Below, in pieces: positions 52 to 64,000 of a stretch of DNA of 64,000 nucleotides. The notes beneath the pieces are model-generated. The model saw only the letters and a list, made by a program, of their open reading frames with translations, did no database searches and was not told where the DNA came from. The DNA comes from an uncultured Gemmatimonadales bacterium (GTDB taxonomy: Bacteria; Gemmatimonadota; Gemmatimonadetes; Gemmatimonadales; GWC2-71-9): contig CAWJMT010000027.1 in assembly GCA_963844035.1 (NCBI GenBank), positions 49,173-113,172 on the forward strand, read 5' to 3'. Numbering within the stretch: position 1 is the stretch's first letter; each line of letters begins with the position of its first letter. The translations under genes and the position numbers were made by a program.

Positions 52-1368
52 TGGCCCGCCCTTCCATCTTGTACCGCCTCAGCGTCCGGCTGGCCGGCAA
101 GGCAGCCCCGTTCGCGGCGCGCTTCGACAAGAAGCTCGCCCGCGGTCTGGACGCGCGGCGTGGTCTGGTGGACCGCTTCGAGGCCTGGGCGAAGGACCAT
201 CGCGATCACAAACGGCCGCTCGTGTGGGTCCACGCGCCATCAGTCGGGGAAGGCCTGCAGGCGAAGCCCGTGCTCGAAGCGTTGCGGGTGGCGCAGCCCC
301 ACTGGCAGCTCGCCTACACGTTTTTCTCGCCGTCCGCGGAACGGCTGGCCCGGACGCTCCCCGCCGACGTCACCGACTATCTGCCCATCGACCGCCCGCA
401 CGACGTGAAAGCCGTGCTCGCGGCGTTGCAGCCGACCGCGCTCGTGTTCTCGAAGCTCGACGTGTGGCCGGAGTTGACGCTCGCCGCGGCGCGCCGCGGG
501 GCAAAGCTGGGACTCATCTCCGCCACCGTCGCACCCGCAAGCTCACGGCTGCGCTGGCCCGCCCGCGGATGGGGACTCCCCGCCTATCGCGCCATCGACC
601 GGATCGGAGCGATCAGCGAGGAGGATGCGCGGCGGTTGGAGCAGCTCGGGGCCAGGCGCGAGGTCATCGTGGTGACGGGCGACACGCGCTACGACAGCGT
701 CGCGGAGCGGGCCGAGCGGTTCGACCGCACGCGGGAGCCGTTTCTTCGCCTCAGCACGGTGGGCGACAAAGTGTTCACGATCGTGGCCGGGTCCACCTGG
801 CCGGGCGATGAAGAGGTGGTGCTGGCCGCGTTCGCCGATCTGCGCGCGCAAGTGCCCGCGGCCCGGCTGATCCTCGCGCCGCACGAGCCAAACCCCGATC
901 ACCTGGCCGGCATAACGCTCCGCACCCAGGCGCTCGGGCTCCCGCGGCCCGTGCGTCTCTCGCAACTGGAGCACGCGCGGCCCTCCCCGGTCATCGTGGT
1001 GGACCGCGTCGGCACGCTGGCGGACCTCTACGCGCTCGCGGACGTCGCGTTCGTCGGGGGAGGGTTCCACCGGGCGGGGTTGCACTCGGTGCTCGAGCCC
1101 GCGGTGTTCGGAGTTCCGGTCGTGGTGGGGCCGCATTGGCAGATGAGCCGGGACGCCCACCTCTTGATCGAGCGCGGCGGCGCGGTGGCGCTCCCGGCGG
1201 ATGGACGCCAGCCCCTGCACTCGCAATCGCTCGTCTGGTTTCACGATCCGGCGGCACGCCGCAAAGCGGGCGCGGTGGGACAGCAGGTGGTGCGGGAGGG
1301 GCGCGGCGCGGCGGAGCGAACCACCGCGCTGGTACTCGCGATGGTGCGGGACGCGGTGCGAGCGCTAA
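51..1368 (+). CDS. waaA: 3-deoxy-D-manno-octulosonic acid (Kdo) transferase
   Basis: VWVHAPSVGE, DYLPID, GDTRYD, VAGSTW, HSVLEPAVFGVPV motifs. The ORF runs to 1649 over a convergent gene, so the true end is probably near 1368. Confidence 0.88.
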
Positions 1369-49917: not shown

Positions 49918-50337
49918 CTACTCCCCCAAAACCTTGATGATCAGCCGCTTGCGACGCTGGCCGTCCCACTCGCCGTAGAACACGCGCTGCCAGGGGCCGA
50001 GATCGAGCTTTCCCTTGGTGATCGGCACGATCACCTCGTGCCCGATCGTGAGGCTGCGCAGGTGCGCCGCGGCGTTGTCCTCACCCGTTTCGTTGTGGCG
50101 GTACCGGCCCGGCTCCCAGGGCGCGATGCTCTGCTCCAGCCACCGCAGGATATCCTCCCACAGGCCCGACTCGTGGTCGTTGACGAACACCGACGCCGTG
50201 ATATGCATGGCGCTCACCAGCACGAATCCCTCCCCCACGCCGCTGCCCGAGACCTGGGTGGCCACTTCGTCGGTGATGTCGATGATCTCCTGTCGTTTCT
50301 TGGTGGTGAACCAGAGGTAGTGCGTGTGGCTCTTCAT
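49918..50337 (-). CDS. yjbQ: YjbQ/UPF0047 family protein
   Basis: HITAS, NAAAHL, LGPWQ, EWDG. Confidence 0.9.
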
Positions 50338-50396
50338 GTCAGACCCCTGTGTCGAATTGTCGCACCCGGACCTTTGTTCTAGATTGGCCCAGTAAT

Positions 50397-51601
50397 ATGC
50401 CGCTTTCCTTCCGTCAGCGGATCTTCGTTGTGCTCGCCGCGTTGACGGCCGTCCCGACCATTCTCGCCGTGATCGGGTGGGCGCTCGCAGTCCGGGCAGG
50501 TGCTCCCTCGACGGGAGCGCGGGTGTCGCTCGAGCAGGTGGCCGTTTCGGCGCGGGAGATGCTCGAGCACGTGGACACGCTGCGGCTCGATCGCGACGAC
50601 CGCGCGGCGATGGGCCGCCACCTGGCGGAAATCTCGAACGCGGTGACCCTGTCGCGGCGCGCAGAGACGTATCTCCGCTACTACACGGCCGGCTTCGTCG
50701 CCGTGGTGCTGCTGCTCGGCCTGGTGGTCCTCTTTGCCGGCGTGCGGGTCGCCGGGCATCTGTCGCGACAGCTGTCACGTCCCATCGATGAGCTGGTGGG
50801 GTGGACGCGGCTGATCCGCCGGCGCCTGCCCCTCCCGGCCGGTCCCCCGTCGCGGGGCGCTCCCGAGTTCCAGGCGCTGCGCCAGGCGCTGCGCGAGCTG
50901 GTGGCAGCGATCGAAGCGGCCCGCGAGCACGAGCTCGAGTCGGAGCGCCAACGCGCGTTCCGCGAGGTGGCGCGGCGTGTGGCTCATGAAATCAAGAATC
51001 CGTTGACGTCCATGCGGATCGCGGTGGACCAGCTGGGGCGGGTCAGGCGGGCAGGCGGATGGACGGACGGCGATGGCACTCGAGGTGCTGGCCGCCGAGA
51101 CGGAACGGCTCGATCACCTGGCGCGCGAGTTCGCGGATTTCGGCCGGCTGCCGGAGGGAGCGCAGAGCGACGTCGATCTCGTGGAGCTGCTCGAGGATCT
51201 GGCGCGATCCGCGGTGCCGGACGGCGTGCGCGTCGTCGTGCGGGCGAACGGCGGGCGCCGGATCGCTCCCCGGCCACTACGATCCGCTGCGTCGCGCCTT
51301 CTCGAACCTGCTGCGGAATGCATCGGAGGCGATGGACGGACGCGGCGAGATCGACGTCGGCATCACCACCGACGGGGCCGCCGAGCGAAGCGGGTTGGTC
51401 GTGACGATCGCAGACCATGGCGCCGGGATTCCGGAGGAGCTGCGCCAGCGGGTGTTCGAGCCGTACTTCACCACCAAACACGATGGCACCGGCCTCGGAC
51501 TGGCGCTCGTCCGCCAGACGATCGAGGCCCATCGCGCGTCGATCCGCGTCGACGAGACACCGGGTGGCGGCGCGACCTTTACGATCGTGTTCCCCGCATG
51601 A
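50397..51601 (+). CDS. Sensor histidine kinase, NtrY-like (frameshifted)
   Basis: [39 protein letters not shown]. Confidence 0.9.
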
Positions 51602-52975
51602 GCCCCCGGATCCTGTTGGTGGACGACGAAGCCAACATCCGCCGCATGCTGGGCGCGCTGCTGCAGTCCGAAGGGTTCGAGACGGCGGAAGCGGCGAATG
51701 GAACCGCCGCCCTCGCCGCGCTGGAGGCGGCGGGTCCCGACGCGGTGCTGCTCGACTTGATGATGCCGGGCGGACCGGACGGCATCGCCACGCTCGAGCA
51801 GCTGAAACGCCGGGCGCCCGGATTTGCCGGTCGTCATGATGAGCGGCAAGGCGAGCCTCACCGATGCGGTGCGCGCGACCAAGCTCGGTGCCTTCCAGTT
51901 CCTCGAGAAGCCGCTGACGCCCGAGGGCTGCTGGTGGCGCTGCGGGCCGCGCTGGAGCTGTCCCGGACCCGCGCCGAGAACCAGCGCCTGCACGAGGCGC
52001 TGGGCCACAGCGATCCCCTGATCGGGCCGAGCCAGGCGCTGACCGAGGTGCGCGCGCGCATCGCGCTGATCGCCCCCACCGAGGCACGGGTGCTGATCAC
52101 CGGCGAGTCCGGCACGGGCAAGGAGCTGGTCGCCTCCGCGATCCACCAGCAGAGCACCCGCGCCGCGCGGCCGTTTGTGTGCGTGAACAGCGCGGCGATC
52201 CCCAAAGACCTGGTCGAGTCGGAGATGTTCGGGCACGAGCGCGGGGCGTTCACCGGCGCCGGCGAGCGGCGTCACGGCCGCTTCGAGCTCGCCGACGGCG
52301 GCACGCTGTTCCTCGATGAGGTCGGCGATCTCGGCCCCGAGGCCCAGGCCAAGCTGCTGCGCGTGCTCGAAACCGGTGTGATCGAGCGGCTCGGCGGCGA
52401 ACGGCCGACCACGGTCGACGTGCGCGTGATCGCAGCCACCAACAAAGGCCTCGCGAAAGCCGCGCAGCAAGGGCAGTTCCGCGAGGACCTGCTGTTCCGC
52501 CTCGACGTGCTCCCGATTCATATCCCGCCGCTACGGGAGCGGACCGACGACATCGCCCCGCTGGCGCACCACTTCGCCGCGCGCCAGCAGGCGCCGCTTG
52601 AGACGGCCGGTGCGCTTCGACGGCGGCGCCATCCCGCTCCTCACCGGCTACGGCTGGCCGGGGAACGTGCGCGAGCTGGCCAACATCGTCGAGCGGCTCG
52701 CGATTCTCGCGGGAAGCGAAGTGATCAGCGCCGACGACGTGGCCCGCGTGCTTCCGAACAGCGCGGGCGCGGTGGCGTCGGGGGAGGGCGCGTGGGCCGA
52801 CGTGGCGCTGTCGGACGCGCTCGACCGCTACGAGCGCACGTTGATCGCGCGGGCCCTGTCGGCCGCGCAAGGCAACGTCGCCGACGCGGCCCGCAAGCTC
52901 GCGACCGACCGCGCGAACCTCTACCGCCGGATGCGCCGCCTCGGGCTCGAGCCGCCGCGTACCGCGCCCGGATGA
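51598..52975 (+). CDS. Sigma-54-dependent response regulator, NtrC/NtrX family (frameshifted)
   Basis: Receiver domain, [22 protein letters not shown], Fis HTH. Confidence 0.93.
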
Positions 52976-52998
52976 CACCCTCGTCCCAGGACAGGCTT

Positions 52999-54753
52999 AT
53001 GCGTTCCATTTTCCTCGCCGCCCTCGCGCTGGCTGGCCCGGCGCTGGCCGCCGCGCAGCAGACCGCGCAGGACACGGCCATCGTCATCAATCCCGACAGC
53101 ACTACCAAAGCCGCGGCTCCGGAAGGAATCCCGCCGGCGGTCGCGAAGGAGGCAGTGCGGTTCTTCAACGCCGCCACTACGACGCGGCTGGTGGGCCGCA
53201 CGCACCTGCCCCACCGCAACGAGTGGCACGGCGACGTCGCCGTCCGTAACGGGTCGGTCGATCTGGCGGGACGCATCAAGGGCAGCCTGTTGGTCATCAA
53301 CGGCGACGCGACGCTCGACTCGACGGCGGAGGTGACCGGCAGCGTCACCGTGGTCGGCGGCTCGGTCACCGTCGCGCCCGGCGCGCAGGTCGGCGGCGCG
53401 GTCCACGCGTATCGCGAGACGCTCAACTACCGCTCGAACGGTGAAGAAATCGCGCTGGCGCCCAATCCCAGGAGCCGCATCCCGTTCATCGGCGCCCGGA
53501 AGACCTGGGCGGGCACGGAGTCGTACTCGGCGTTGGCGATCGCCACCGGCGGCACGTTCAACCGCATCGAGGCACTCCCCGTGGTGCTCGGACCGGAGTT
53601 CGCCTGGCGCGTGCGCGAGGGTTTCGGCGTGCGGCTGGATGCCCTCGCGATCGTCCGCACGGTGGGCAACGTGGGCGAGGGCGAACCGAGCACGCTCGGC
53701 TACATCGTGAACTCGGAGGTTCGCTCGGGCGCTCCGCGGGGTTTCGGGGCCGGACTGCGGCTGTACAGCGAGCTGGGGTCGGTCGAGAGCTGGGCCCTCA
53801 CGGACGCGGAGGTCGGCTGGGCCTCGTTTCTCTTCCAGCGCGACTACCGCGACTACTACTTCACGCGCGGCCTGCACGGCCGGCTGTTCGCGCAGCCGAC
53901 CCTGCCCCTCCGGGTGTCGCTGGGGCTCGGCTATGACTGGCAGACCAGCGTCCAGGCCCGCGACCCGTGGACGCTCACCAACACCAAGGACGCCTGGCGG
54001 CCCAACCCGCCGATGGATGCCGGACACTACACCACGCTCACCACCTCGGTGACGTTCGACACCCGCAACGACCACGAGCAGCCGACCGCGGGGTGGCTCG
54101 TCGATGCACAGCTCGACAACGGCTGGGCGCCCGACGTCAGCCCTCAGGTCCTGCCGATCGCCGTGCGGGAGGCGATTCCGACCGACGGCTCGTATCACTT
54201 CCACCGCCTGTTCCTCGACATCCGCCGCTACACGCGGGTGAGCCCGGGCGGGCGAGTCAATTTCCGCCTGATCGCGGGGGGCTGGCTGGGCGGCGATCCC
54301 CTCCCGCTGCAACAACGCCTCTCGCTCGGCGGCGCGGGCGGCATGCCGGGCTACCCATTCCGGCGCACGGCGTGCAACGGCGACATCACCGATCCCGCGT
54401 TCGCCGGCAGCCTGGTCGCAGCGTGCGACCGCGTGCTGCTCACGCAGGTGGAATACCGCGGGCATCTCTCGCTGCACTGGGCGTACGGCCGGTCGCGCCC
54501 CGAGGACGAGACGAGAAAGTCGCCCCTCACCCTGCAGGGGCCCGACCTGGTGGTGTTCGGCGACGCGGGGCAGGCGTGGCTGGTGGGTGAAGGCCCGGGA
54601 CGGCTGCCGGCCAACCGCCTTCCCACGATCAGCAGCTGGCTGGCGGACCTGGGACTGGGCATGGATTGGGGAGGCTTTGGCGTGTACGTCGCGAAAGCGG
54701 TGACATCCGGGGAACCGCTGCGCGTCACGCTGCGACTCGTCCACCGCTTCTAG
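52999..54753 (+). CDS. Outer-membrane protein with bactofilin-like N-terminal repeats and BamA/TamA-like barrel
   Basis: Signal peptide, GDVAVRNGSV repeats, FDTRND, SLGG..MPGY, terminal HRF. Confidence 0.7.
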   Translation: MRSIFLAALALAGPALAAAQQTAQDTAIVINPDSTTKAAAPEGIPPAVAKEAVRFFNAATTTRLVGRTHLPHRNEWHGDVAVRNGSVDLAGRIKGSLLVINGDATLDSTAEVTGSVTVVGGSVTVAPGAQVGGAVHAYRETLNYRSNGEEIALAPNPRSRIPFIGARKTWAGTESYSALAIATGGTFNRIEALPVVLGPEFAWRVREGFGVRLDALAIVRTVGNVGEGEPSTLGYIVNSEVRSGAPRGFGAGLRLYSELGSVESWALTDAEVGWASFLFQRDYRDYYFTRGLHGRLFAQPTLPLRVSLGLGYDWQTSVQARDPWTLTNTKDAWRPNPPMDAGHYTTLTTSVTFDTRNDHEQPTAGWLVDAQLDNGWAPDVSPQVLPIAVREAIPTDGSYHFHRLFLDIRRYTRVSPGGRVNFRLIAGGWLGGDPLPLQQRLSLGGAGGMPGYPFRRTACNGDITDPAFAGSLVAACDRVLLTQVEYRGHLSLHWAYGRSRPEDETRKSPLTLQGPDLVVFGDAGQAWLVGEGPGRLPANRLPTISSWLADLGLGMDWGGFGVYVAKAVTSGEPLRVTLRLVHRF

Positions 54754-54754
54754 A

Positions 54755-55365
54755 GTGCGGAGCTGGGTCGCAGGTATCCTGCTCCTCGTCGGGGCGGCGG
54801 CGTCGGCCGCCGCTCAGGACCCGTCGCTCACGGTGACGCTGCAGAACGGCGTGCCCCGCGTGCAGGCCGCCGAGCTGCTCGCCAACGGAAAATTCCTGGG
54901 GCTGATGCGTTCCGGGTTTCCGCTGCGGCTGCACTACCGGCTCGAGCTGTGGCGCACGAAATCCGGGTGGTTCGACGACCACATGAATGAAACCGCGTGG
55001 GATGTCGTCGCGCACTACGATCCCCTGGCCGACGACTTCGTGCTCGTGCGCACCGGCGGCATCGCGACGCGCTACGCGCGCGTCGAAGCGCTGGCGCAGG
55101 CGCTCCAGGTCCCCTACAAGGTGACGCTCGCCCCCAAGGGAGCGGGGAGCTACTACTACCTGTGCCGGCTGGAGATCTCGACGCTGAACGACACGGATCT
55201 ACGGGAAGTGCAGCAGTGGCTCAAGGGGGACGTGTCTCCCGCGGTCACCGGCCGGGTGGGGACCTGACCAATGCCGTGGTGCTGGGCGCGCAACGGGTGC
55301 TGGTACGAATCGCGGGGTTGCCGCGGCTGACGCTGGAGGCGAGGTCGGGGGAGTTCAAGAAATAG
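54755..55365 (+). CDS. DUF4390-like exported protein (frameshift near 55255)
   Basis: SGFPLRLHYRLELWR, YDPL. Confidence 0.6.
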
Positions 55366-55426
55366 GTGTCAGGTGTCAGGTGTCAGTCAGGTGTCAGGTG
55401 TCAGGTGTCAGGTGTCAGGTGTCAGG
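55364..55426 (+). repeat. (GGTGTCA)n heptamer array, left arm
   Basis: About 8 units, inverted relative to 55899-55934. Confidence 0.9.
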
Positions 55427-55822
55427 CGCGTTCTTGAGAGCCCGGGTGAGTCCGGAAAGCATTTTGCCAATCTCACTCGCTTGCAGTAAGAATTTGCTCC
55501 TCCTCTTCCTTCTTGCACGTAGCCCCTCCGCCCGGCGATCAGAACTTGAGTTTCCAACTCCATCAAGGAGCCGTTTGCGATCGACAGGTGGCGAAGGTAG
55601 TCGCCGAGATGGTCTCCTCCCGTGTCCCTCGGCAATGTTCGACGGAACAGACACAGCTGCGCGCCTCAGTTGCTGAGCGAGCCCGTACTTCTCCTCCTTA
55701 GGGAAAGAATCGGTCAGACGGTATGCCTCAACCACGAGATCCATCGCCCGTCCCCAAACAAGGAGGTCACGGAATCCATTGATGAGCCGCCGCGGCGGTT
55801 CATTCGGCTTGTCCAGGATCAT
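55415..55822 (-). CDS. Four-helix-bundle protein (23S-rRNA-IVP / Avd-like family; frameshifted)
   Basis: FRDLLVW..AMDL, FPKEEKYGL..QLRRAAVSVPSNIAEG, ANGSLMELETQ, KMLSGL. Confidence 0.92.
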   Translation of the reverse strand: MILDKPNEPPRRLINGFRDLLVWGRAMDLVVEAYRLTDSFPKEEKYGLAQQLRRAAVSVPSNIAEGHGRRPSRRLPSPPVDRKRLLDGVGNSSSDRRAEGLRARRKRRSKFLLQASEIGKMLSGLTRALKNAPDT

Positions 55823-55898
55823 CGTGTGTGTGACGGAGTCTACAGAACTTGAGTCTGCGAAGGCACACCATTTTGCGGCGAGGACTACCAGATTAGCG

Positions 55899-55934
55899 CA
55901 CACCTGACACCTGACACCCGACACCTGACACCTG
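55899..55934 (-). repeat. (CACCTGA)n heptamer array, right arm
   Basis: About 5 units. Confidence 0.9.
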
Positions 55935-55940
55935 CCTCTC

Positions 55941-56348
55941 TCAGCTCCCGAACTGCGCGTCGATTGCCTTACGAATCTCTTTGAGAGAGTTCCTTGAGCC
56001 GGCCATTTTCGCGGCCATCATCGCTTCTCCCATACAGATGTCGCAGTAGGCTCCGTGGTCGGTCTCGAAGCAGGTGAGCAGCGACCGGTGGCCGATCGAC
56101 TTGCTGCAGTTGCAATGGCAGTAGATGCCGTCGAGCACCTGCGGCGCGCGGCGTGCGGCCTCGTAGGCCTCGAGCGTTCCGGCGCCCACCGGCACCATCC
56201 CCGGCGGCAGGACCCGCTCCGCGGTAATACCGGGGCGCGGATCGGGGTGGATGATGGCGCTGGCGCCCGCCGGCGCGCTGTTCATGGTCATGACCACGAC
56301 GAGCCCCACAACCGCCGCACCGCCCACCACCCAGGGCAGCTTGCTCAT
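55941..56348 (-). CDS. PCYCGC-motif-like membrane-anchored protein
   Basis: IYCHCNC, HRSLLTCF, HGAYCDIC, IRKAID. Confidence 0.75.
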   Translation of the reverse strand: MSKLPWVVGGAAVVGLVVVMTMNSAPAGASAIIHPDPRPGITAERVLPPGMVPVGAGTLEAYEAARRAPQVLDGIYCHCNCSKSIGHRSLLTCFETDHGAYCDICMGEAMMAAKMAGSRNSLKEIRKAIDAQFGS

Positions 56349-56896
56349 AGCCCCTCGAGGGTGGCCAGCACGTCGGCCCCGTAGAACAGCCGGATGTAGC
56401 GGGACTGGACCGATGGTGAGGCGCCGCACCGCCCACGCGAGGTGCACGAAGTGCGGCTCGACGGGTGGCTGCAGCGGGTGCATCCCGACCTCCGCGGGGA
56501 GGAGGTTGCCCTTGCGCGTGTTACAGGTCGAGCACGCCGTGAGGACGTTGGTCCAGGCGTTCGAGCCGCCGCGCGAGATCGGGCACGAGGTGGTCCCGCG
56601 TGAGGCATTCGCGGTGGCGCAGCTCGTGCTGGTGGCGGCCGCAGAACTGGCAGCGGTAGTTGTCGCGGGCGAACAGGAACGTGTTGGTGACCTGGCGGCG
56701 GAAGCGGCGCGGCACGTGGACGAACTTGACCAGGCGAATCACGGCCGGACGCGGCATCGGCGAGGCGCTCGCTGCGCACAACGGAGCCGTCCGCCTCGAC
56801 GATCTCCGCTTTGCGGTCGATCACCAGGCGTAGCGCCCGGCGCACGGGCACCATGGTCAGCGGCTCGAAGGACGCGTTCAGCGCCAGACAGCGCAC
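56345..56896 (-). CDS. HNH endonuclease (frameshifted)
   Basis: LALNASFEPL, FARDNYRCQFCG, TRDHL, WTNVLTACSTCNTRKGN. Confidence 0.9.
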   Translation of the reverse strand: MRCLALNASFEPLTMVPVRRALRLVIDRKAEIVEADGSVVRSERLADAASGRDSPGQVRPRAAPLPPPGHQHVPVRPRQLPLPVLRPPPARAAPPRMPHAGPPRARSRAAARTPGPTSSRRARPVTRARATSSPRRSGCTRCSHPSSRTSCTSRGRCGASPSVQSRYIRLFYGADVLATLEGL

Positions 56897-56983
56897 GAGA
56901 CTCTCCCGCGAAAAAAGGCCGTCTCACCCCGGAGGAGCGGGACGGCATCATATGGTACACAAACAGCTTAGGCGCGGCAAGCG

Positions 56984-57065
56984 GGCGACGGTCGAGGACG
57001 GTCGAAGGACGGTCAAGGACGGTCCTCACCCCCTGACCCCCTCTCCGCATTCGCGGAGAGGGGAG
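56984..57065. repeat. Decamer tandem (GGACGGTCGA)n plus REP-like hairpin CCTCACCCCCTGACCCCCTCTCC..GGAGAGGGG
   Basis: The hairpin recurs at 58757-58796; the decamer complement occurs at 57445-57475. Confidence 0.7.
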
Positions 57066-57226
57066 ACGCAAGGCGACCGCATTTCGCAAAGGATTGCACA
57101 CGAGCAGCGTTGCTTCGGTACGGAGGCCGCGACCGACACGTCTACATTCGCCGCGCGGCACGGTGGCGCGTGCATGGTCCGTCGTCTCGGCCTTCGGGCT
57201 TACCAGTGGTTCGCAACCGGTATGGT

Positions 57227-57310
57227 GCTGGCGTGGCGAAACTGGTAAACGCGGCAACCTCACACGTTGCTGGGCGCGAGCCCTTGTGGGTTCGAATCCC
57301 ACCGCCAGCA
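57227..57310 (+). tRNA. Non-canonical tRNA: Leu-type class II body with CAC (Val) anticodon
   Basis: GCTGGCG/CGCCAGC-A73; D-arm GGCGAAACTGGTAAACGC; stem GCAAC-CTCACAC-GTTGC; V-arm GGGC-GCGA-GCCC; T-arm GTGGG-TTCGAAT-CCCAC. Confidence 0.85.
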
Positions 57311-57326
57311 CCGCCGTATTTTGCCA

Positions 57327-57355
57327 TTGCGTCACCACGACGTTGCCGATATTTT
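57327..57355 (+). promoter_or_regulatory. Putative sigma-70 promoter of anti-tRNA sRNA 1
   Basis: TTGCGT-N17-TATTTT; equivalent hexamers in all three copies. Confidence 0.6.
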
Positions 57356-57361
57356 GCGACC

Positions 57362-57442
57362 ACGTGTGAGGTTGCCGCGTAGCCAGTTGCGCTACGCCGA
57401 AGAAAGCCGGGAGCGTGATGCTTACCGGCTTTCGTCTTTTCT
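57362..57442 (+). ncRNA. Putative anti-tRNA small RNA 1
   Basis: First 19 nt are the exact reverse complement of 57249-57267, then near-complement of the D-arm; ends in the GAAAGCCGG/CCGGCTTTC hairpin. Confidence 0.65.
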
Positions 57443-57491
57443 GCCCGCCCTCGTCCGCCTTCCACCGCCGCCGTTCCGTGATACGGACACC

Positions 57492-57510
57492 GTATGCATA
57501 TTCTGCATAC
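57492..57510. promoter_or_regulatory. Palindromic operator upstream of the antitoxin
   Basis: GTATGCA-TATTC-TGCATAC perfect inverted repeat. Confidence 0.55.
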
Positions 57511-57531
57511 TCCACATTCGGGAGACGTTGT

Positions 57532-57771
57532 ATGGGACACAAGGTGCGCAAGACGCTGAACATTGACGCAGACAAACTGAAGCGCGCGCAGGACTACCTG
57601 GGGCTCGACACTGAGACCGAGGTGATTGACCTGCTACTCAACCGGCTGCTGGACGATTGCGAATTCGAGCGCGAACTGGCGGAACTGAACCGCGAATTCG
57701 GGACAGTCCTCAAGGGTTTCCGGTCCCCGCTCGTTGCGCGCCTAAAGCCGCGGCTCGGCATCTCCCGCTAA
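57532..57771 (+). CDS. VapB-like (RHH) antitoxin, orphan
   Basis: RKTLNIDADKLKRAQDYLGLDTETEVID pattern; GGAGA RBS. Confidence 0.65.
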   Translation: MGHKVRKTLNIDADKLKRAQDYLGLDTETEVIDLLLNRLLDDCEFERELAELNREFGTVLKGFRSPLVARLKPRLGISR

Positions 57772-57895
57772 AGCGGGTCTGCGCCGCCCGTTCACGGGCA
57801 GGTGCCGAGCCGCGAGTTCACTCGCGCACTCCAACACACGCCGAGCCGCCGTCCGGCCATATTGCCACCGTGCCCGCTCCCAGCTCCCCTCCCCC

Positions 57896-58747
57896 GTGAC
57901 CCTCCCCCAACTCCTCACGTTGCTGCGCAAATCGGTGGTGGCGTGGTATGACGACGACTGTTCCAGCATGGGCGCGGCGCTCGCCTTCTACACGCTCTTC
58001 TCCATCGCTCCGCTGCTCGTGATTGTCGTCGGCGTCGGGAGCCTGATTTTCGGCCGCGATGCCGCCCACGCGCAGATCCTCGGCCAGGTGCGCGCACTCA
58101 TGGGCGACGCCGGCGCCCAGGCCGTCGCGGACCTCTTCAATAGCGCGAACAGCCCCGCGACCAGCGCCCTCACCGCACTGGTGGGTACCATCTTCCTGCT
58201 GTTCGGCGCGACGGCCGTGTTCACTGAGGTGTACGGCAATTTCGACCGCATCTGGCGCAACCCCTCCCCTCCCAAAGCCAGCGGCATCTGGGAACTCGTC
58301 CGCACCCGCATCCTGTCGTTCGGGATGCTCCTCAGCATCGGATTCCTGCTGCTCATCTCGCTTGTCATGTCGGCCGGCATCGCGGCGGCCGGCGACTGGT
58401 GGTGGATCGGCTTTCTGCGCTGGCCGCTCGTGGGCAAGGCCGTCCGCGTGATCGTGAGCCTCGCCACCTACACGTTGGCCTTCGCGATGATCTACAAGGT
58501 TCTGCCCCGCGCAAGCATCCACTGGCACGACGTCTGGACCGGCGCGGCGGTGACCGCCGCGTTGTTCGAGATCGGCAAGCTGTTCATCGGGTGGTACCTC
58601 GCAAGCAGCATCACGTCGGTGCTCGGCGCAGCCGGCTCGCTTGTGGTGCTGCTCGTCTGGCTCTACTACTCGGCGCAGGTGTTCCTGCTCGGTGCGGAGT
58701 TCACCAAGGTGTACGCCTATCGGCGCGGGTCGCGTTCGGGAAAGTAG
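57896..58747 (+). CDS. YihY/BrkB family membrane protein
   Basis: MGAALAFYTLFSIAPLL, IYKVLP, GAAGSLVVLLVWLYYSAQVFLLGAEF. Confidence 0.93.
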   Translation: MTLPQLLTLLRKSVVAWYDDDCSSMGAALAFYTLFSIAPLLVIVVGVGSLIFGRDAAHAQILGQVRALMGDAGAQAVADLFNSANSPATSALTALVGTIFLLFGATAVFTEVYGNFDRIWRNPSPPKASGIWELVRTRILSFGMLLSIGFLLLISLVMSAGIAAAGDWWWIGFLRWPLVGKAVRVIVSLATYTLAFAMIYKVLPRASIHWHDVWTGAAVTAALFEIGKLFIGWYLASSITSVLGAAGSLVVLLVWLYYSAQVFLLGAEFTKVYAYRRGSRSGK

Positions 58748-58846
58748 CTGACGTGACCTCACCCCCTGACCCCCTCTCCCTATCGGGAGAGGGGGAACGC
58801 GCGGGACGTGTCGCGACATCACCGCCTTCGACCGCCCTCGTCCGCC

Positions 58847-58921
58847 CAGTTCTGTGAATCGGATGATGCTCGCGTAGAAATGGTTACGCCCTGCCATCAG
58901 AACCCGGTACGGTTGAGGCCA
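58847..58921 (+). repeat. Conserved ~75-nt non-coding element B1
   Basis: Differs from 61086-61160 at about 8 positions. Confidence 0.7.
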
Positions 58922-58991
58922 GTCCTCTCTCCCCCGGCTCGTGAGGTGGCTCTTGACTCGGCACGCACCATCGCCAACGATTCCGTCAGCC

Positions 58992-59268
58992 ATGCCGGTC
59001 ACGATTCCCTCCGCAGCCCTGCGCCAGATGAGCGAGGCGGAGCGCACGCGGCTTCTCGATGCCGCGTTCGCGCACTCGCCTGAGGCCCTGGCCAACTATC
59101 TCGCCGTGCTCGACGCCCGCATCCGGGTGTTCGAGCAGCGCTACGAGCTGCCGACGTCGGCGCTTCCTGAAGCCATGGCCTCCGGCCAGCTCCGGGACAC
59201 GGCAGACGTGAGTGAGTGGCTGTTCTGGGCACAGCTGCGGAGTGACCTTGCCCGGGAAGCACGGCTAA
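58992..59268 (+). CDS. TumA-like antitoxin
   Basis: FEQRYELPT...SGQLRDTADVSEW pattern; overlaps the toxin start; its stop needs a small indel correction. Confidence 0.6.
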
Positions 59269-59712
59269 CCGCCTCGGCAACTACCTCGACGTTCACGACT
59301 CCCACATCGCGGACCTCATCGCCGAGGGGTTCGTGGTGGAAGATCAGTCGCGGTTCATTTTCCTGCCGGTCTCGTGGTGCTGGAGGGTGTGATCGTTTGC
59401 CTTGACCGCATCAGACTTGAGGTGCGGAAGGAGATCGAGGTCCTGGAGGGACGCGGGATGGCCGCTCGCGTGGACTCGTCGGTTCCGGTATCACGCCTGG
59501 CTACGCGGCGTCTACAACGTCCTGCGGTACGAATCCGCTCACGAACACCGCCCGCACCCTCACAAGCACGTGTACGACACGTTCGGTCACGGACGCGAGC
59601 CGAGTGTCATTGACTTGAGAAAGAGGATGATGTTCCGACGCTCGGCGAGGTTCTGCGGGAGTTGCAGGCGTGGCACGAGGGGAACGCGGCCAGGCTGAAG
59701 TATCTGAAGTGA
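59248..59712 (+). CDS. DUF6516/TumE-like toxin (frameshifted)
   Basis: Stitched frames give FRYHAW...VLRYESAHEHRPHPHKH...PTLGEVLREL. Confidence 0.6.
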
Positions 59713-59752
59713 GGTCATTGCGCCGCGAAAACCTTGACGATATTCTTCGATC

Positions 59753-59832
59753 ACTTGCGGGGTTGCCGCGTAGCCAGTTGCGCTACGCCGAAGAAAGCCG
59801 GGGAGCGTGATGCTCACCGGCTTTCGTCGTCT
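59753..59832 (+). ncRNA. Putative anti-tRNA small RNA, orphan copy
   Basis: Promoter TTGCGC-N17-TATTCT (59718-59746); same body and hairpin; anti-loop TTGCGGG. Confidence 0.6.
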
Positions 59833-59869
59833 CCGCCCAGTGAACCCCGGGGCCGTCCTCGTCGCGGGT

Positions 59870-59905
59870 TACCCCGGGGCACGGCCCCGGGGTAAACCCA
59901 CCCGG
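59870..59905. repeat. REP-like CCCCGGGGCAC.GCCCCGGGGTAAACCCACCCGG element
   Basis: Recurs at 61000-61035. Confidence 0.6.
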
Positions 59906-60107
59906 ATGAGATCCCAACGATGACCGCCTTCGCCCGCCTTCCACCGCCGTCCTTCGTCGGATCCGTCGCAAGAATTCGGTATGCGTAGCGTTGCTGCGGT
60001 ACGCAGGCCGCGACCAACGCTTCTACATTCGCGCCGCGGCACGGTGGCGTTTGCATGGTCCGTCGTCCTGGCCTTCGGGCTTACCAGTGGTTCGCAACCG
60101 GAATGGT

Positions 60108-60191
60108 GCTGGCGTGGCGAAACTGGTAAACGCAGTAACCTTGCAAGTTGCCGGGCGTGAGCCCTTGTGGGTTCGAATCCCACCGCCAGCA
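60108..60191 (+). tRNA. Non-canonical tRNA: Leu-type class II body with TGC (Ala) anticodon
   Basis: Near-identical to 57227-57310; stem GTAAC-CTTGCAA-GTTGC; U3:A70, so no G3:U70. Confidence 0.85.
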
Positions 60192-60246
60192 CCGCCGCGT
60201 TCTTTTGCCATTGCGCCGCCAAGACCTGACTCGATATTGTTCGACC

Positions 60247-60326
60247 ACTTGCAAGGTTGCCGCGTAGCCAGTTCGCTACGTCAAGAAAGCCGGAGAGCGT
60301 CATGCTCACCGGCTTTCGTCGTTTCT
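60247..60326 (+). ncRNA. Putative anti-tRNA small RNA 2
   Basis: Promoter TTGCGC-N18-TATTGT (60211-60240); starts ACTTGCAAGGTT, complementary to the TGC anticodon arm. Confidence 0.65.
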
Positions 60327-60452
60327 GCCCCGTCGTTTCTGTCCCGCTAACCCCGCACCGCGTTTGCTTCCCGACACCGCCTTTGCCTTCCCGACACCGC
60401 CTTCGGCCTTCAACCGCCCTCGCCCGCCCACCTGTCCCACCGACCCGTATAT

Positions 60453-60977
60453 TTGACCTCGCGCGACAGCATCAACACCCAGCTGCGCGCGGCGTTGGAC
60501 GGTGCCACGGCGCAGTGGGGGATCAAGATTGTGCGGGTGGAGCTGAAGAACATCACGCCACCGGAGGAGATTCGCCTCACGATGGAGAAGCAGATGACCG
60601 CCGAGCGGAGCCGGCGGGCCGTGGTCACGACCGCGGAGGGCGAGAAATCGTCCGCGATTCTGCGCGCCGAGGGGCTGAAGCAGGCGGCGATCGTCACGGC
60701 CGAAGGAGAGAAGCAGTCCGCGATTCTCAGTGCCGAAGGTCAGGCCGAAGCACGGCTGCGTGTGGCGGGGGCCGAGGCGCAGGCGCTGCGGGTGGTGGCT
60801 GAAGCGCTCGGGAAGGACGGCAAGCCGGCGCAATACCTCATCGCCAAGAGCTATCTCGAGTCACTGACCGGCATCGCGAGCGATGCCCAGAAGGTCGTCT
60901 TCATGCCGTTCGAAGCATCCTCGGCGATGGCGTCGATCGGGGCGATCAAGGAGTTGTGGGGGGCGACGGGGGGGTGA
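60453..60977 (+). pseudogene. N-terminally truncated SPFH/stomatin (QmcA-like) gene
   Basis: Begins mid-domain at LTSRDSIN; WGIKIVRVELKNI, MEKQMTAER, AEGEK repeats. Confidence 0.8.
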
Positions 60978-61085
60978 GGGGGTGGGCGACGCGTGTTTAG
61001 CCCCGGGGCACCGCCCCGGGGTAAACCCACCCGGTCAAGATTCACTGTGTTGCCCGCCCTCGCCTGCCGCTTCACCCTCCCGCCG

Positions 61086-61160
61086 CAGTTCGGTGAATCG
61101 GATGATTCTTGCGTAGAAAGGGTTACGCCCTGCTAATAGAATCCGGTACGGTTGAGGCCA
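61086..61160 (+). repeat. Conserved ~75-nt non-coding element B2
   Basis: Copy of 58847-58921; CAGTTCGG can pair with CCGAACTG just downstream. Confidence 0.7.
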
Positions 61161-61283
61161 ACCGAACTGCCTCCTCACTCCCGCGCGGACTGTCACACCC
61201 TGTTCGCACCTCGGTGCAACTTCAGCGTGGAGGCAGTGTGGCAATCTTGAAGTCGTGCCGCGCCCGACAGAGCGAAGGGACAC

Positions 61284-62348
61284 GTGGCACGCCCTGATCG
61301 CCTCAACATCATCGGAGAGCTCGAGCGCCTTCGTGGCTCGCGCGTCATCACCTTGCTTACGGGTGACCGGGCTCCGGACTACGGCACGATCATCGCGGGC
61401 GACGCGCCGCCACTGCTCTACCGGCATCTCGAGCGGCTGGGCAAGGTCGATCAGATCGACCTTCTCCTCTATAGCCGAGGCGGGCACACTCTAAGCGGCT
61501 TTCGCATCCCGGCACTGGTTCGCGAGTACTGCACACGGTTTTGCGTGTTGATCCCGTACCGAGCGCACAGTGCCGCTACGCTGGTGGCCCTGGGCGCCGA
61601 CGAGATCGTCATGACGCCGCTAGCGGAGTTGAGCCCGGTCGATCCTTCTACGAATGGTCCGTTTAATCCTCCCGCGCCCGTGCAGGTGGCAGCGGGACAA
61701 ATGCCCCCGACGTTCCCCGTAAGTGTGGAGGACGTCGTGGGCTACCTGAACCTCGCGAGAGAGGAAGCGGGCCTTCAGGATTCTCAGGCGATGCGGGAGG
61801 TGTTTACTCGGCTGGCGACAGACGTCCGCCCGCTGGCGCTTGGGCAGGTTTTTCGCGCACGATCGCAGATTCGCATGTTGATCCGCAAGTTGCTCCTGCT
61901 ACACGAGAATCCACCCGGCCGCTCGCGAATCGCGGGTCTCGTGAAGGCCGCACCGGCGCGTCGGCGAATGAGAAGCATCGTTACGACCCTCTCAGAGAGA
62001 CTCCTCTCTCACGACTACTTGATCACGCGCGCGGAGGCGAAGACGCTCGGTCTCAAGGTAAAGTTTGCCTCGGCGGACGAAGAAGGGCGCATGCTTGCCC
62101 TGTACCGCGACTACGAAGCGGCTATGCAACTCTCAGAACCCTTCAACGTGGAGACCGTTCTCCCGGCCTCGGGGACGCTGCAGATCACCTTCGAGCGGGC
62201 ATACATCGAGAGCAGCTTCGGTGCCCACATCTACCGCACAGTGAAGGAGTTCAGGCGGGCAGCAGCGGCGGGGCAGCAAGCGCAGCAGTTGCAAACTGCG
62301 GAACGCATCGTGCATGACGGTTGGGTGTTGACCGACGCTAAACCGTAA
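61284..62348 (+). CDS. SDH-family ClpP-fold serine protease
   Basis: IDLLLYSRGG, IPYRAHSAATLVALGADEIVM, LSPVDP, SHDYLITRAEA..LGLKV. Confidence 0.85.
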   Translation: MARPDRLNIIGELERLRGSRVITLLTGDRAPDYGTIIAGDAPPLLYRHLERLGKVDQIDLLLYSRGGHTLSGFRIPALVREYCTRFCVLIPYRAHSAATLVALGADEIVMTPLAELSPVDPSTNGPFNPPAPVQVAAGQMPPTFPVSVEDVVGYLNLAREEAGLQDSQAMREVFTRLATDVRPLALGQVFRARSQIRMLIRKLLLLHENPPGRSRIAGLVKAAPARRRMRSIVTTLSERLLSHDYLITRAEAKTLGLKVKFASADEEGRMLALYRDYEAAMQLSEPFNVETVLPASGTLQITFERAYIESSFGAHIYRTVKEFRRAAAAGQQAQQLQTAERIVHDGWVLTDAKP

Positions 62349-62701
62349 GAGATATTGCCACTTCAATGGATGACTTCTTGAGGGGCTACTCCTTGAAGGT
62401 ACTGGGCGCGTGGACGGGTGCCCGGGTGGCTTTCCCGGCCCAGTCTGCGGGAGCTGAACCGTGGAGCGGCGCTTTCGATCACGCCGCGCCTACGTGGACG
62501 CCAGCCAGCCGACCCTTCTCGCTCCACAGGAGGAGTTGCCGCTCGAAACGCCTCCCGCTCCCGATGCGGAAGCCACCTAGACTCCTCGGCCGCCGCCCGT
62601 ATCAGACCGCCGCAGTACCCCGTCTCCACCGCCCTCCACCCCAACCGCCCTCGCCCGCCCGACCCTCGCCGCATGTCACACCGCGACCGCATATTCTCCC
62701 C

Positions 62702-63323
62702 GTGCCCAGCACACCAAAGTTCGCTCCCTCCCCACGCCTCACGGCAGCGTTCGAGTATGCCTGCCAGCTCCACGCGAACCAGCTTCGGAAAGGGGCGACG
62801 ATCCCGTACATCGCCCATCTGATGGCCGTCGCCGCGCTGGTGATGGAGCACGGCGGCGGCGAGGACGAGGCCATGGCGGCGTGCTGCACGATGCCATTGA
62901 GGATCAGAACCACGACGGGTCGGTTCCGGGAGAGGTCGGCGCGCGGTTTGGGCCGAAAGTGCTCGCGCTCGTCGAGGCCTGTTCCGACTCAAAGGGGCCG
63001 GACAAGCCACCCTGGCGGGAGCGCAAGGCAGCGTATGTGGCCCATCTACGGACCGCGCCACCGAGCGTACGTCTTCATCTCGGCGGCAGACAAGCTGCAC
63101 AACGCCCGCGCGATTCTTGAAGACTACCGCAGGCTGGGCGACGAGTTGTGGGAGCGGTTCAATACGGGTCGGGAGGACAGTTGCGGTTACTACAGCGACC
63201 TGGTCACTGCATTCAGAAGGCCGTGACCAGCGGCCAGACTCGAGCGTTGGTGGACGAGCTGGATCGGTGGTGACGGCGCTCGAACGCGAAATCGACAGCG
63301 CCGCCGAGGGCCCAGGGAAGTGA
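62702..63323 (+). CDS. HD-domain protein, Mesh1/small alarmone hydrolase-like (frameshifted)
   Basis: HANQLRKG..PYIAHL, LHDAIED, ACSD, WRERK, ADKLHNAR. Confidence 0.88.
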
Positions 63324-63375
63324 CGCTGACGTTGCAAGGTGCGACTTGGGTCTTAGGCATGGGGCGTTTGACCAC

Positions 63376-64000
63376 ATGACCAAGAGAAGGACCCCGACGG
63401 ATGGCAGCAATCTAGTTTACGGAGAGGTGGAAGGCTCGCTGGTTTTCATCCCGCACGCGAAAGCGCAGGAGCTTGCTAAGATCTGGGCCGCATTGGGTTC
63501 CGCCTCGACGTGGGGCGAGTTCCGATCCTTGATGCCTCCGACCAGATACGAGGCATTGCTTGCAGACATGGTCTACGCCGTCGACTTCGATTCGTTCTTT
63601 GCACAGGAGTTGCTGGACAATCCGAGCCTGACTCGTGACCAAGCGTTCTTGGCGTACCGCGAGGTTGATGTGGGGGAGCGACTGCCATTTGATGACGATG
63701 CGTTTGAGGGATACGCACTCCCCCAGGTGGCGGACGGCGACTACCCCGAGTGGTCAGCTCAAGAAATGCTCAACTGGGTACCGGCAGTCATCGTTAATCA
63801 ACCCTTCAGCAAGATTGAGAGATCTGTCCACAATGGTCAGTTTCTGATACTGGATCCCAAGAAGGAGCGAGAGATTGTTGCTGCGTTCGCTGCCGCAGGT
63901 TTCCGCTCCACCAAAGATCAACAGCTGGTATCACAAGCCACCGGTCATTGGGCGCCTGTCGACTCCGAGGAGTCCATACCAGAACTGATCCTTGCCCTCA
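63376..64000 (+). CDS. Hypothetical protein (runs off the window)
   Basis: Uninterrupted frame from ATG 63376 to the window end (MTKRRTPTDGSNLVYGEVEG...DGDYPEW); absent from the ORF track because it has no stop. Confidence 0.65.
   Translation, partial: MTKRRTPTDGSNLVYGEVEGSLVFIPHAKAQELAKIWAALGSASTWGEFRSLMPPTRYEALLADMVYAVDFDSFFAQELLDNPSLTRDQAFLAYREVDVGERLPFDDDAFEGYALPQVADGDYPEWSAQEMLNWVPAVIVNQPFSKIERSVHNGQFLILDPKKEREIVAAFAAAGFRSTKDQQLVSQATGHWAPVDSEESIPELILAL

Follow-up and report, generated by a model that had tools for sequence, protein, structure and literature searches.

Why should a tRNA gene be followed, on its own strand, by an inverted copy of its anticodon arm, and what would a transcript of that copy do? 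The question is raised by three short segments in a 64,000-nt stretch of an uncultured Gemmatimonadales genome (contig CAWJMT010000027.1), referred to here as the window; two of the segments lie behind tRNA genes with a leucine-type body and a non-leucine anticodon. The initial annotation described each segment as TTGCG(T/C)-N17/18-TATT(T/C/G)T followed by an A 7 nt further on, and this motif is present at all three copies. The features are as follows.

57106..57121 (+): conserved motif GC(A/G)(A/T)-N6-G(G/A)T, 21-22 nt 5' of a -10-like hexamer
57143..57148 (+): predicted -10 of the tRNA transcript, TACATT, without a consensus -35
57155..57226 (+): 72-nt 5' leader of the first tRNA, degenerately complementary to the 5' half and to the 3' trailer of that tRNA and predicted to lock it by folding back
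57227..57310 (+): first tRNA, class II, Leu body, Val anticodon CAC at 57261-57263
57327..57355 (+): copy 1 promoter, predicted sigma-70-type; TTGCGT 57327-57332, N17, TATTTT 57350-57355
57362..57442 (+): copy 1 antisense sRNA, predicted; +1 A at 57362
57362-57376 (+): copy 1 sRNA 5' tail; anti-anticodon at 57366-57368
57377-57397 (+): copy 1 sRNA hairpin SL1
about 57401-57433 (+): copy 1 terminator-like hairpin, arms 57402-57410 and 57425-57433, followed by a U-rich tail
59718..59746 (+): copy 2 promoter, predicted, orphan; TTGCGC 59718-59723, N17, TATTCT 59741-59746
59753..59832 (+): copy 2 orphan antisense sRNA, predicted, against a CGC anticodon; +1 A at 59753
60024..60107 (+): predicted -10 (60024-60029) and leader (60036-60107) of the second tRNA
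60108..60191 (+): second tRNA, class II, Leu body, Ala anticodon TGC at 60142-60144
60211..60240 (+): copy 3 promoter, predicted; TTGCGC 60211-60216, N18, TATTGT 60235-60240
60247..60326 (+): copy 3 antisense sRNA, predicted, anti-TGC; tail, SL1 and terminator laid out as in copy 1

A GC-rich hairpin with a U-rich tail forms the 3' part of all three copies. Their promoter spacers do diverge, as first noted, with 9 of 17 positions invariant against 62 of 72 in the RNA part. In copies 1 and 3 complementarity begins at the predicted +1 A, opposite position 40 of the tRNA, and copy 1 shares a 19-nt perfect inverted repeat with its tRNA; the same claim does not extend to copy 2, where the upstream tRNA is absent. 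An exactly cognate tRNA for copy 2 was not found in the 83.7%-complete genome, and its sRNA is predicted to cross-pair with the tRNA of copy 3. Contig C4 of the same genome holds two further tRNA-antisense pairs and two further lone antisense copies, giving four pairs and three orphans in all (three of seven antisense copies). Generic scans did not call the three weak sigma-70 promoters of the window and found no terminator at its copies, and Rfam has no family for the sRNA or the leader at the gathering threshold.

A family of tRNA-antisense loci

GTDB species genomes were searched with a pattern that combines a Leu-type body with a non-A35 anticodon, which gave 78 loci; this genome and ten loci from relatives were added and 11 GTDB duplicates removed, leaving 81 distinct tRNAs. 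Of these Leu-bodied, non-Leu tRNAs, 72 have a downstream antisense segment. On a score anchored symmetrically about the anticodon the positives reach at least 9.5 and the nine negatives at most 7.7, the 99th percentile of the null being 8.7; the negatives were first chosen by eye and then scored below that percentile. The 72 positives are from Gemmatimonadota, except for three MAG contigs with other titles (L071, L083 and L102) and one 'bacterium HR33', and all nine negatives have titles outside that phylum. When 67 ARAGORN calls from this genome were scored, only the four Leu-bodied odd tRNAs passed, and none of the other 63.

Two further searches point the same way. Metagenomes were queried with a pattern that contained the -35 but neither the -10 nor the antisense (at least 120 matches, at least 80 loci); among the matches listed, 70 of 73 distinct scored loci have the antisense, 67 of the 73 match the anticodon exactly, and the +1 faces position 40 in 50 of 70. 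Five held-out Val-anticodon loci, found separately, all fit. A covariance model run on 151 genomes of the order places the sRNA in 35 of them, patchily and in up to eight copies per genome. Related loci are not independent, so that all of these counts overstate independence. Narrow queries gave no match in viral contigs (two patterns) or in plasmids.

We note several relatives outside the main group. The antisense-less Leu-bodied tRNAs carry CCC, TGG, GTC, GTG, CGG or AGA anticodons; L056, L091 and L059 are titled Dehalococcoidia/Chloroflexota, and the others include L073, L079, L085 and L041. L056 and L091 have common flanks and look like a separate conserved family, and L183, from a metagenome, is another TGG case without antisense. 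A divergent subtype (L164, L180, L186 and L234) has the Arg anticodon GCG and a shorter antisense without SL1, and in L163 and L167 a different short antisense follows a tRNA stump or an odd tRNA-like gene.

Leucine bodies with foreign anticodons

ARAGORN names the window tRNAs Val(CAC) at 57227-57310 and Ala(TGC) at 60108-60191, and Rfam also recognizes them as tRNAs. Both are 84-nt class II molecules with the shape of the genome's own tRNA-Leu genes, and ordinary short Val(CAC) and Ala(TGC) tRNAs are present elsewhere in the same genome. The G3:U70 pair is a determinant for AlaRS; the second tRNA has U3:A70 and thus is without the alanine identity pair. The first likewise has U3:A70, together with the leucine features A73, A14, A15:U48 and a long variable arm, and no encoded CCA.

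These features are general. Among the 72 antisense-linked tRNAs A73 and A14 each occur in 71, A15 in 68 and U48 in all 72, the fold has a 7-bp acceptor and a 5-bp T stem, and none encodes CCA; the pattern used for the search itself required the long arm and the D-loop motif. In E. coli tRNA-Leu, A73 and A14 are described as the main determinants, the anticodon arm being dispensable for leucylation (PMC9976931).

The 14 anticodons are Ala CGC, GGC, TGC and AGC; Val CAC and GAC; Glu CTC and TTC; Asp GTC; Gly GCC and CCC; Thr GGT; Arg GCG; and Ser GGA. The codons they read are mostly among the most used in this genome (GCG ranks 1, GCC 2, GGC 4, GTG 6, GAG 8 and GAC 9), with the rare GAA, GCA and GCT as the exceptions. 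Of the 72, only L089 (tRNA near 401-452, minus strand) has G3:U70, together with the Ala anticodon AGC and a retained antisense; its sequence suggests a tRNA that has possibly turned into a correctly charged one.

The antisense is tied to a predicted promoter of its own

The claim that the antisense is an independent gene finds support in the family. A TTG-N3-N16-18-NANNNT pattern lies upstream of it in 72 of 72 loci, where composition shuffles give the pattern in 4.9% anywhere and in 1.2% at the right place, and a covarying terminator hairpin follows. The homologous promoters are mostly TTGACT with a 17-nt spacer, and include near-consensus forms such as TTGACT-N17-TAGAAT (L008). The distance from tRNA to promoter varies from 8 to 35 nt and that from promoter to antisense start is fixed, which ties the promoter to the antisense and not to the tRNA.

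That the predicted +1 coincides with the start of complementarity is also supported across the family, with an offset of zero in 38 of 63 loci and of at most 1 nt in 52. The base 7 nt past the -10 faces tRNA position 40 in 42 of 72 and positions 40-44 in 69, the predicted +1 is a purine in 62 of 72, and Watson-Crick pairing rises from 27/72 at position 41 to 69/72 at position 40.

The antisense also persists without the tRNA. Among the best-per-genome model hits outside this genome (n=29), an intact tRNA precedes 17 and an odd tRNA-like gene one, and 11 have no tRNA; six of these 11 retain a tRNA 3' stump and ten the promoter, although the covariance model includes the promoter, so that promoter-keeping orphans are partly selected. 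We conclude that the sRNA is very likely a separately transcribed inhibitor of its tRNA.

The predicted sRNA matches the anticodon arm

The predicted sRNA is about 66-89 nt long and comprises a 5' tail facing tRNA positions 40-26, the 7-bp hairpin SL1 and the terminator-like hairpin. RNAalifold unaided gave neither SL1 nor the leader rod described below, and both structures were named by hand before pairs were counted. Over 52 sequences SL1 and the terminator covary: they are paired at 89.9%, against 82.3% when shuffled and 43-46% when slid, with double changes at 12 of 17 pairs.

The anticodon is matched by three Watson-Crick pairs in 68 of 72 loci, and by one or more G-U pairs in the remaining four. 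Energy tests and the tree used 69 rows (L047, L077 and the truncated L102 were left out). The duplex energy is -29.2 kcal/mol for cognate against -12.0 kcal/mol for non-cognate pairs, and cognate pairing beats every different-anticodon arm in 65 of 69. Cofolding predicts 25-39 bp (median 33) with interruptions, where a duplex of about 37 bp was first envisaged. Host tRNAs were considered as targets, in the manner of CreT, and rejected, since each of the four sRNAs that accompany a tRNA in this genome has its strongest pairing with the adjacent tRNA.

A tree from which the arm and tail were excluded requires 31 anticodon changes for 11 anticodons, where the minimum is 10; although this tree gives rough support only, the repeated switching implies that the antisense match has been renewed many times. 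Mismatches at positions 29-38 comprise 22 G-U and 3 A-C, with 39% G-U expected, and this excess speaks for pairing as RNA, on this strand, rather than for homogenisation of the DNA alone.

A Sok-like 5' seed was proposed for the tail, which the folds uphold in part: the unpaired fraction of its first 14 nt is 55%, where shuffles give 45%, and it exceeds 0.7 in only 19 of 72. In the window the tail is predicted to be fully open only in copy 1, those of copies 2 and 3 forming a weak stem of 3-4 bp. Adding the complement of positions 41-43 is predicted to close a mirror anticodon hairpin in 42 of 42 cases, the unpaired value falling from 0.61 to 0.13, and among antisense copies beginning at 42-44 the pairing at 25-27 is often lost. 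In these models a start at position 40 rather than 43 keeps the RNA from closing its own mirror anticodon hairpin, which offers a rationale for that start.

Leader, upstream motif and read-through

The motif GC(A/G)(A/T)-N6-G(G/A)T with a spaced NANNNT occurs in 46 of 68 loci outside this genome, and may serve the tRNA promoter as an activator site or an alternative-sigma site. An SOS-type control is not supported, as the 33 genome hits are about as many as in shuffles and form no clear DNA-repair set. Elsewhere in the window, a 75-nt repeat (58847-58921 and 61086-61160, 89% identical) precedes small genes without annotation and a gene for an SDH-type protease, and has the same motif and spaced -10 as the tRNA promoters; the two are possibly served by a shared regulator or sigma factor.

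The leader of about 72 nt is conserved; along its length it complements first the 3' trailer, then the anticodon arm and the D-loop, and last the 5' strand. The resulting rod is paired at 78.2%, against 73.6% shuffled and 36-43% slid, in a structure drawn from these same sequences. The nascent leader with the tRNA 5' half pairs more than shuffled leaders do in 59 of 69 loci. The leader's preference for its cognate is modest (52-56/69 against 29-37/69 in controls). Against a lock, equilibrium folds of leader, tRNA and trailer retain the acceptor stem at least as often as with shuffled leaders (0.49 against 0.34), and whole-precursor folds are divided between rod and cloverleaf. A leader lock is likely on balance, with reduced certainty.

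In alignment A2, in which seven Ala/Thr loci with a divergent leader were retained, the leader's anti-anticodon stretch often mismatches the present anticodon while the sRNA matches it (for example L099 and L042), a pattern that suggests a leader lagging behind anticodon switches. The triplet GGT directly precedes the tRNA in 54 of 72 loci; in the window (57224-57226) it can pair with A73-C74-C75 (57310-57312) and lengthen the acceptor stem, which may slow RNase P or 3' maturation.

The 8-35 nt between tRNA and promoter are too few to hold a terminator, and a tRNA transcript that reads on would have the antisense attached in cis. Folds of such transcripts put the antisense on the tRNA (at least 15 bp) in 66 of 69 loci and reduce the acceptor stem probability to 0.01.

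Genomic neighbourhood

No neighbour is fixed among 113 called ORFs in 22 regions, of which 81 were scanned; these 81 include no integrase, synthetase or cas family. Phd, RelE, PIN, HepT/nucleotidyltransferase, Uma2 or HNH/Schlafen genes occur in 8 of 20 regions from relatives, a raw count without a background rate. The 12 window ORFs scanned likewise include no cas family, and the window has no Rfam CRISPR match.

Other elements were observed within the window. Two small ORFs at 58992-59713, the second apparently frameshifted, lie directly 5' of orphan copy 2; the ORFs at 58992-59698 have no Pfam or NCBIfam match, and may be a TumA/TumE-like pair. Copy 1 is followed at 57532-57771 by a small VapB-like gene (Pfam E 0.003, below the cut-off) with no toxin gene seen behind it. 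Inverted GGTGTCA-type heptamer arrays at 55364-55426 and 55900-55937 flank a four-helix-bundle (23S rRNA IVP) gene. Many genes at 50000-64000 appear to be frameshifted, and identical copies of several tRNA genes recur on contigs C5, C21 and C24 of the same genome, which together suggest assembly indel errors and redundancy.

A putative toxin-antitoxin module made of RNA

The sequence itself shows the order of parts (leader, tRNA, promoter, antisense and hairpin), a match that follows each anticodon, and the promoter geometry. We consider it probable that the locus is an all-RNA toxin-antitoxin system with hok/Sok-like logic, in which a leucine-inserting, miscoding tRNA is the toxin and an antisense RNA of about 80 nt from its own promoter the antitoxin. 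The tRNA would be transcribed with its 72-nt leader, which would pair with the tRNA 5' half during synthesis; the transcript, having no terminator of its own, would run through the antisense gene and be locked in cis. Slow 3' trimming, RNase P and CCA addition would release mature tRNA, which LeuRS would charge, so that leucine would be inserted at Ala, Val, Glu, Asp, Gly or Thr codons. The sRNA, made from its sigma-70-type promoter, would open with a tail aimed at the anticodon loop and zip with the tRNA into a duplex of about 33 bp, unfolding the cloverleaf and probably exposing it to RNase III. Were sRNA synthesis to stop, through loss of the locus or phage shut-off, or the tRNA promoter to be induced, free tRNA would poison translation. 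For toxicity and its neutralisation the signs are indirect, namely the orphan antisense genes and the patchy spread, and most of the doubt about this reading attaches to toxicity and miscoding. Miscoding tRNAs are reported to harm E. coli (PMC5389517, PMC10404621). Against the reading weigh the modest openness of the 5' tail, the weaker leader lock, C33 in 15 of 72 tRNAs, the lack of an encoded CCA in all 72, and the negative results for integrases among the 81 scanned ORFs and for viral contigs and plasmids.

The tRNA might instead be a regulated and tolerated mistranslation switch, used in stress adaptation as suggested for tRNA-ProX, with the sRNA as off-switch. The tRNA promoter does look regulated, having a conserved non-sigma-70 upstream motif; the target is most often an Ala codon (46/72), and PMC10404621 gives Ala-to-Pro as the mildest substitution; and C33, present in 15 of 72, may damp activity. 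The patchy multicopy spread, rapid anticodon switching, frequent loss of the tRNA with the antisense kept, and toxin-antitoxin neighbours nonetheless fit selfish or defence modules better, and a dedicated synthetase is not seen among the neighbours scanned, so that we regard such a switch as unlikely.

More doubtful is a tRNA that harms the cell or a phage without miscoding, the sRNA still neutralising it: an uncharged or cognately charged decoy could tie up LeuRS, EF-Tu or processing enzymes, or stall ribosomes. Because A35, C36 and A73 are Val determinants (PMC9976931), the Val versions are ambiguous in charging, and those with CAC or GAC may be valylated; by sequence the Val and Thr versions could be correctly charged, L089 combines G3:U70 with an Ala anticodon, and some allo-tRNAs are reported to have killed E. 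coli without working in translation (PMC5389517). Against this, the Leu determinants are kept while the anticodon takes 14 values skewed to abundant GNN codons, and the antisense is aimed precisely at the anticodon.

Could the antisense be confined to acting in cis, folding back from the 3' end of the precursor, behind a promoter-like motif that does not work? The 66/69 read-through folds and the weak promoter hexamers of the window itself would suit this, yet 72 of 72 motifs keep their distance to the antisense start and not to the tRNA, orphans keep the promoter, and SL1 appears to be selected for a free RNA, which makes it very improbable. Hardly to be credited, too, is an inert inverted repeat in which half a tRNA has been duplicated at the DNA level and template switching keeps the two arms matched, for although the arms are near-perfect inverted repeats about 90 nt apart, it is opposed by the 22:3 ratio of G-U to A-C, the abrupt onset at position 40, coupled to the -10 hexamer, changes in SL1 that keep self-pairing at the cost of the tRNA match, and the covarying terminator. 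Template switching may, for its part, be the origin of new matches.

Returning to the toxin-antitoxin reading, we see about as much for as against its widest form, a family of all-RNA modules in which a host-charged miscoding tRNA is triple-locked by leader, cis trailer and trans anti-anticodon sRNA, anticodon and antidote are swapped together, and orphan antitoxins serve as immunity against incoming copies.

Significance and comparison with known systems

A literature search by titles and abstracts, mostly open-access, returned no description of the tRNA and antisense combination. If the proposal is true, it provides a natural case of a tRNA gene as toxin and of a gene dedicated to pairing with a tRNA anticodon arm, neither of which was found in the literature searched. 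It would also make testable why genomes keep tRNAs with mismatched body and anticodon (allo-tRNA, tRNA-ProX and nev-tRNA) and how cells survive them. Annotation tools label such genes ordinary tRNA-Ala, -Val or -Glu. Being shorter than 300 nt, dependent on no enzyme beyond host LeuRS and available in at least 14 natural anticodon specificities, each with its own inhibitor, the module might be of use as a switchable tool for tRNA control.

The tRNA alone has three sets of relatives. Like the nev-tRNAs of nematodes it combines leucine identity elements with a non-Leu anticodon in a class II molecule; those are described as tRNA-Leu-derived, leucylated and decoding GGG as leucine, but are eukaryotic, are said to match rare codons where the Gemmatimonadota tRNAs target common ones, and have no antisense partner mentioned in the abstract (PMC3333845). 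The tRNA-ProX/ProRSx systems of Streptomyces are likewise natural bacterial dual-identity tRNAs with varied anticodons and are toxic in E. coli, but are described with a Pro body, a dedicated synthetase and a fixed operon, and the word antisense is absent from the main texts (PMC10404621, PMC11415595). In place of a Pro body, A34 and a linked ProRSx, the loci studied here have a Leu body, A34 in 1 of 72, and no synthetase among the neighbours scanned. Allo-tRNAs share the diverse non-cognate anticodons, the long variable arm, an origin in soil bacteria, proximity to toxin-antitoxin genes and lethality when induced, but are reported to have an 8/4 or 9/3 fold and Ser identity (G73/U73) where ours are 7/5 with A73 in 71 of 72 (PMC5389517, PMC7609411); in PMC5389517, as available, 'antisense' and 'complementary' do not occur in main text or supplement, nor 'Gemmatimonad' in the supplement.

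The proposed regulation is closest to that of hok/Sok. The Sok antitoxin has a single-stranded 5' tail. In hok/Sok of plasmid R1 the full-length toxin RNA is described as inactive through fold-back pairing and as metastable in structure while it is being transcribed; trimming of its 3' end activates it, and RNase III cuts the duplex that it forms with a small antisense RNA (PMC9841398); the fold-back, trimming and antisense duplex steps all have predicted analogues in the Gemmatimonadota module. The hok/Sok toxin, however, is an mRNA for a membrane peptide and not a tRNA, and its antisense overlaps on the opposite strand, whereas here it is a downstream inverted copy on the same strand. Type I systems have a protein toxin with an mRNA target and an opposite-strand antitoxin; here the pairing tracks the anticodon, alignment A2 has no conserved ORF, and promoter, hairpin polarity and G-U bias all mark the strand of the tRNA, which places the module outside type I.

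Both partners are non-coding RNAs in one locus, the structure of the antisense RNA being predicted, as in the type VIII systems SdsR-RyeA and CreTA, where both parts are RNA and creTA can be tandem on one strand (PMC10767807, PMC11951105, PMC8501985). In those accounts CreA, acting through Cascade, keeps creT from being transcribed and host tRNAs are sequestered by CreT, whereas we see no CRISPR-repeat-derived guide in the window and no cas genes among the ORFs scanned; the SdsR and RyeA partners overlap on opposite strands (PMC10767807, PMC11951105); and neither system, as described there, has a tRNA toxin or an anticodon-arm target. By the chemistry of its parts the module would therefore be a type VIII toxin-antitoxin system, with a proposed mechanism unlike that of either.
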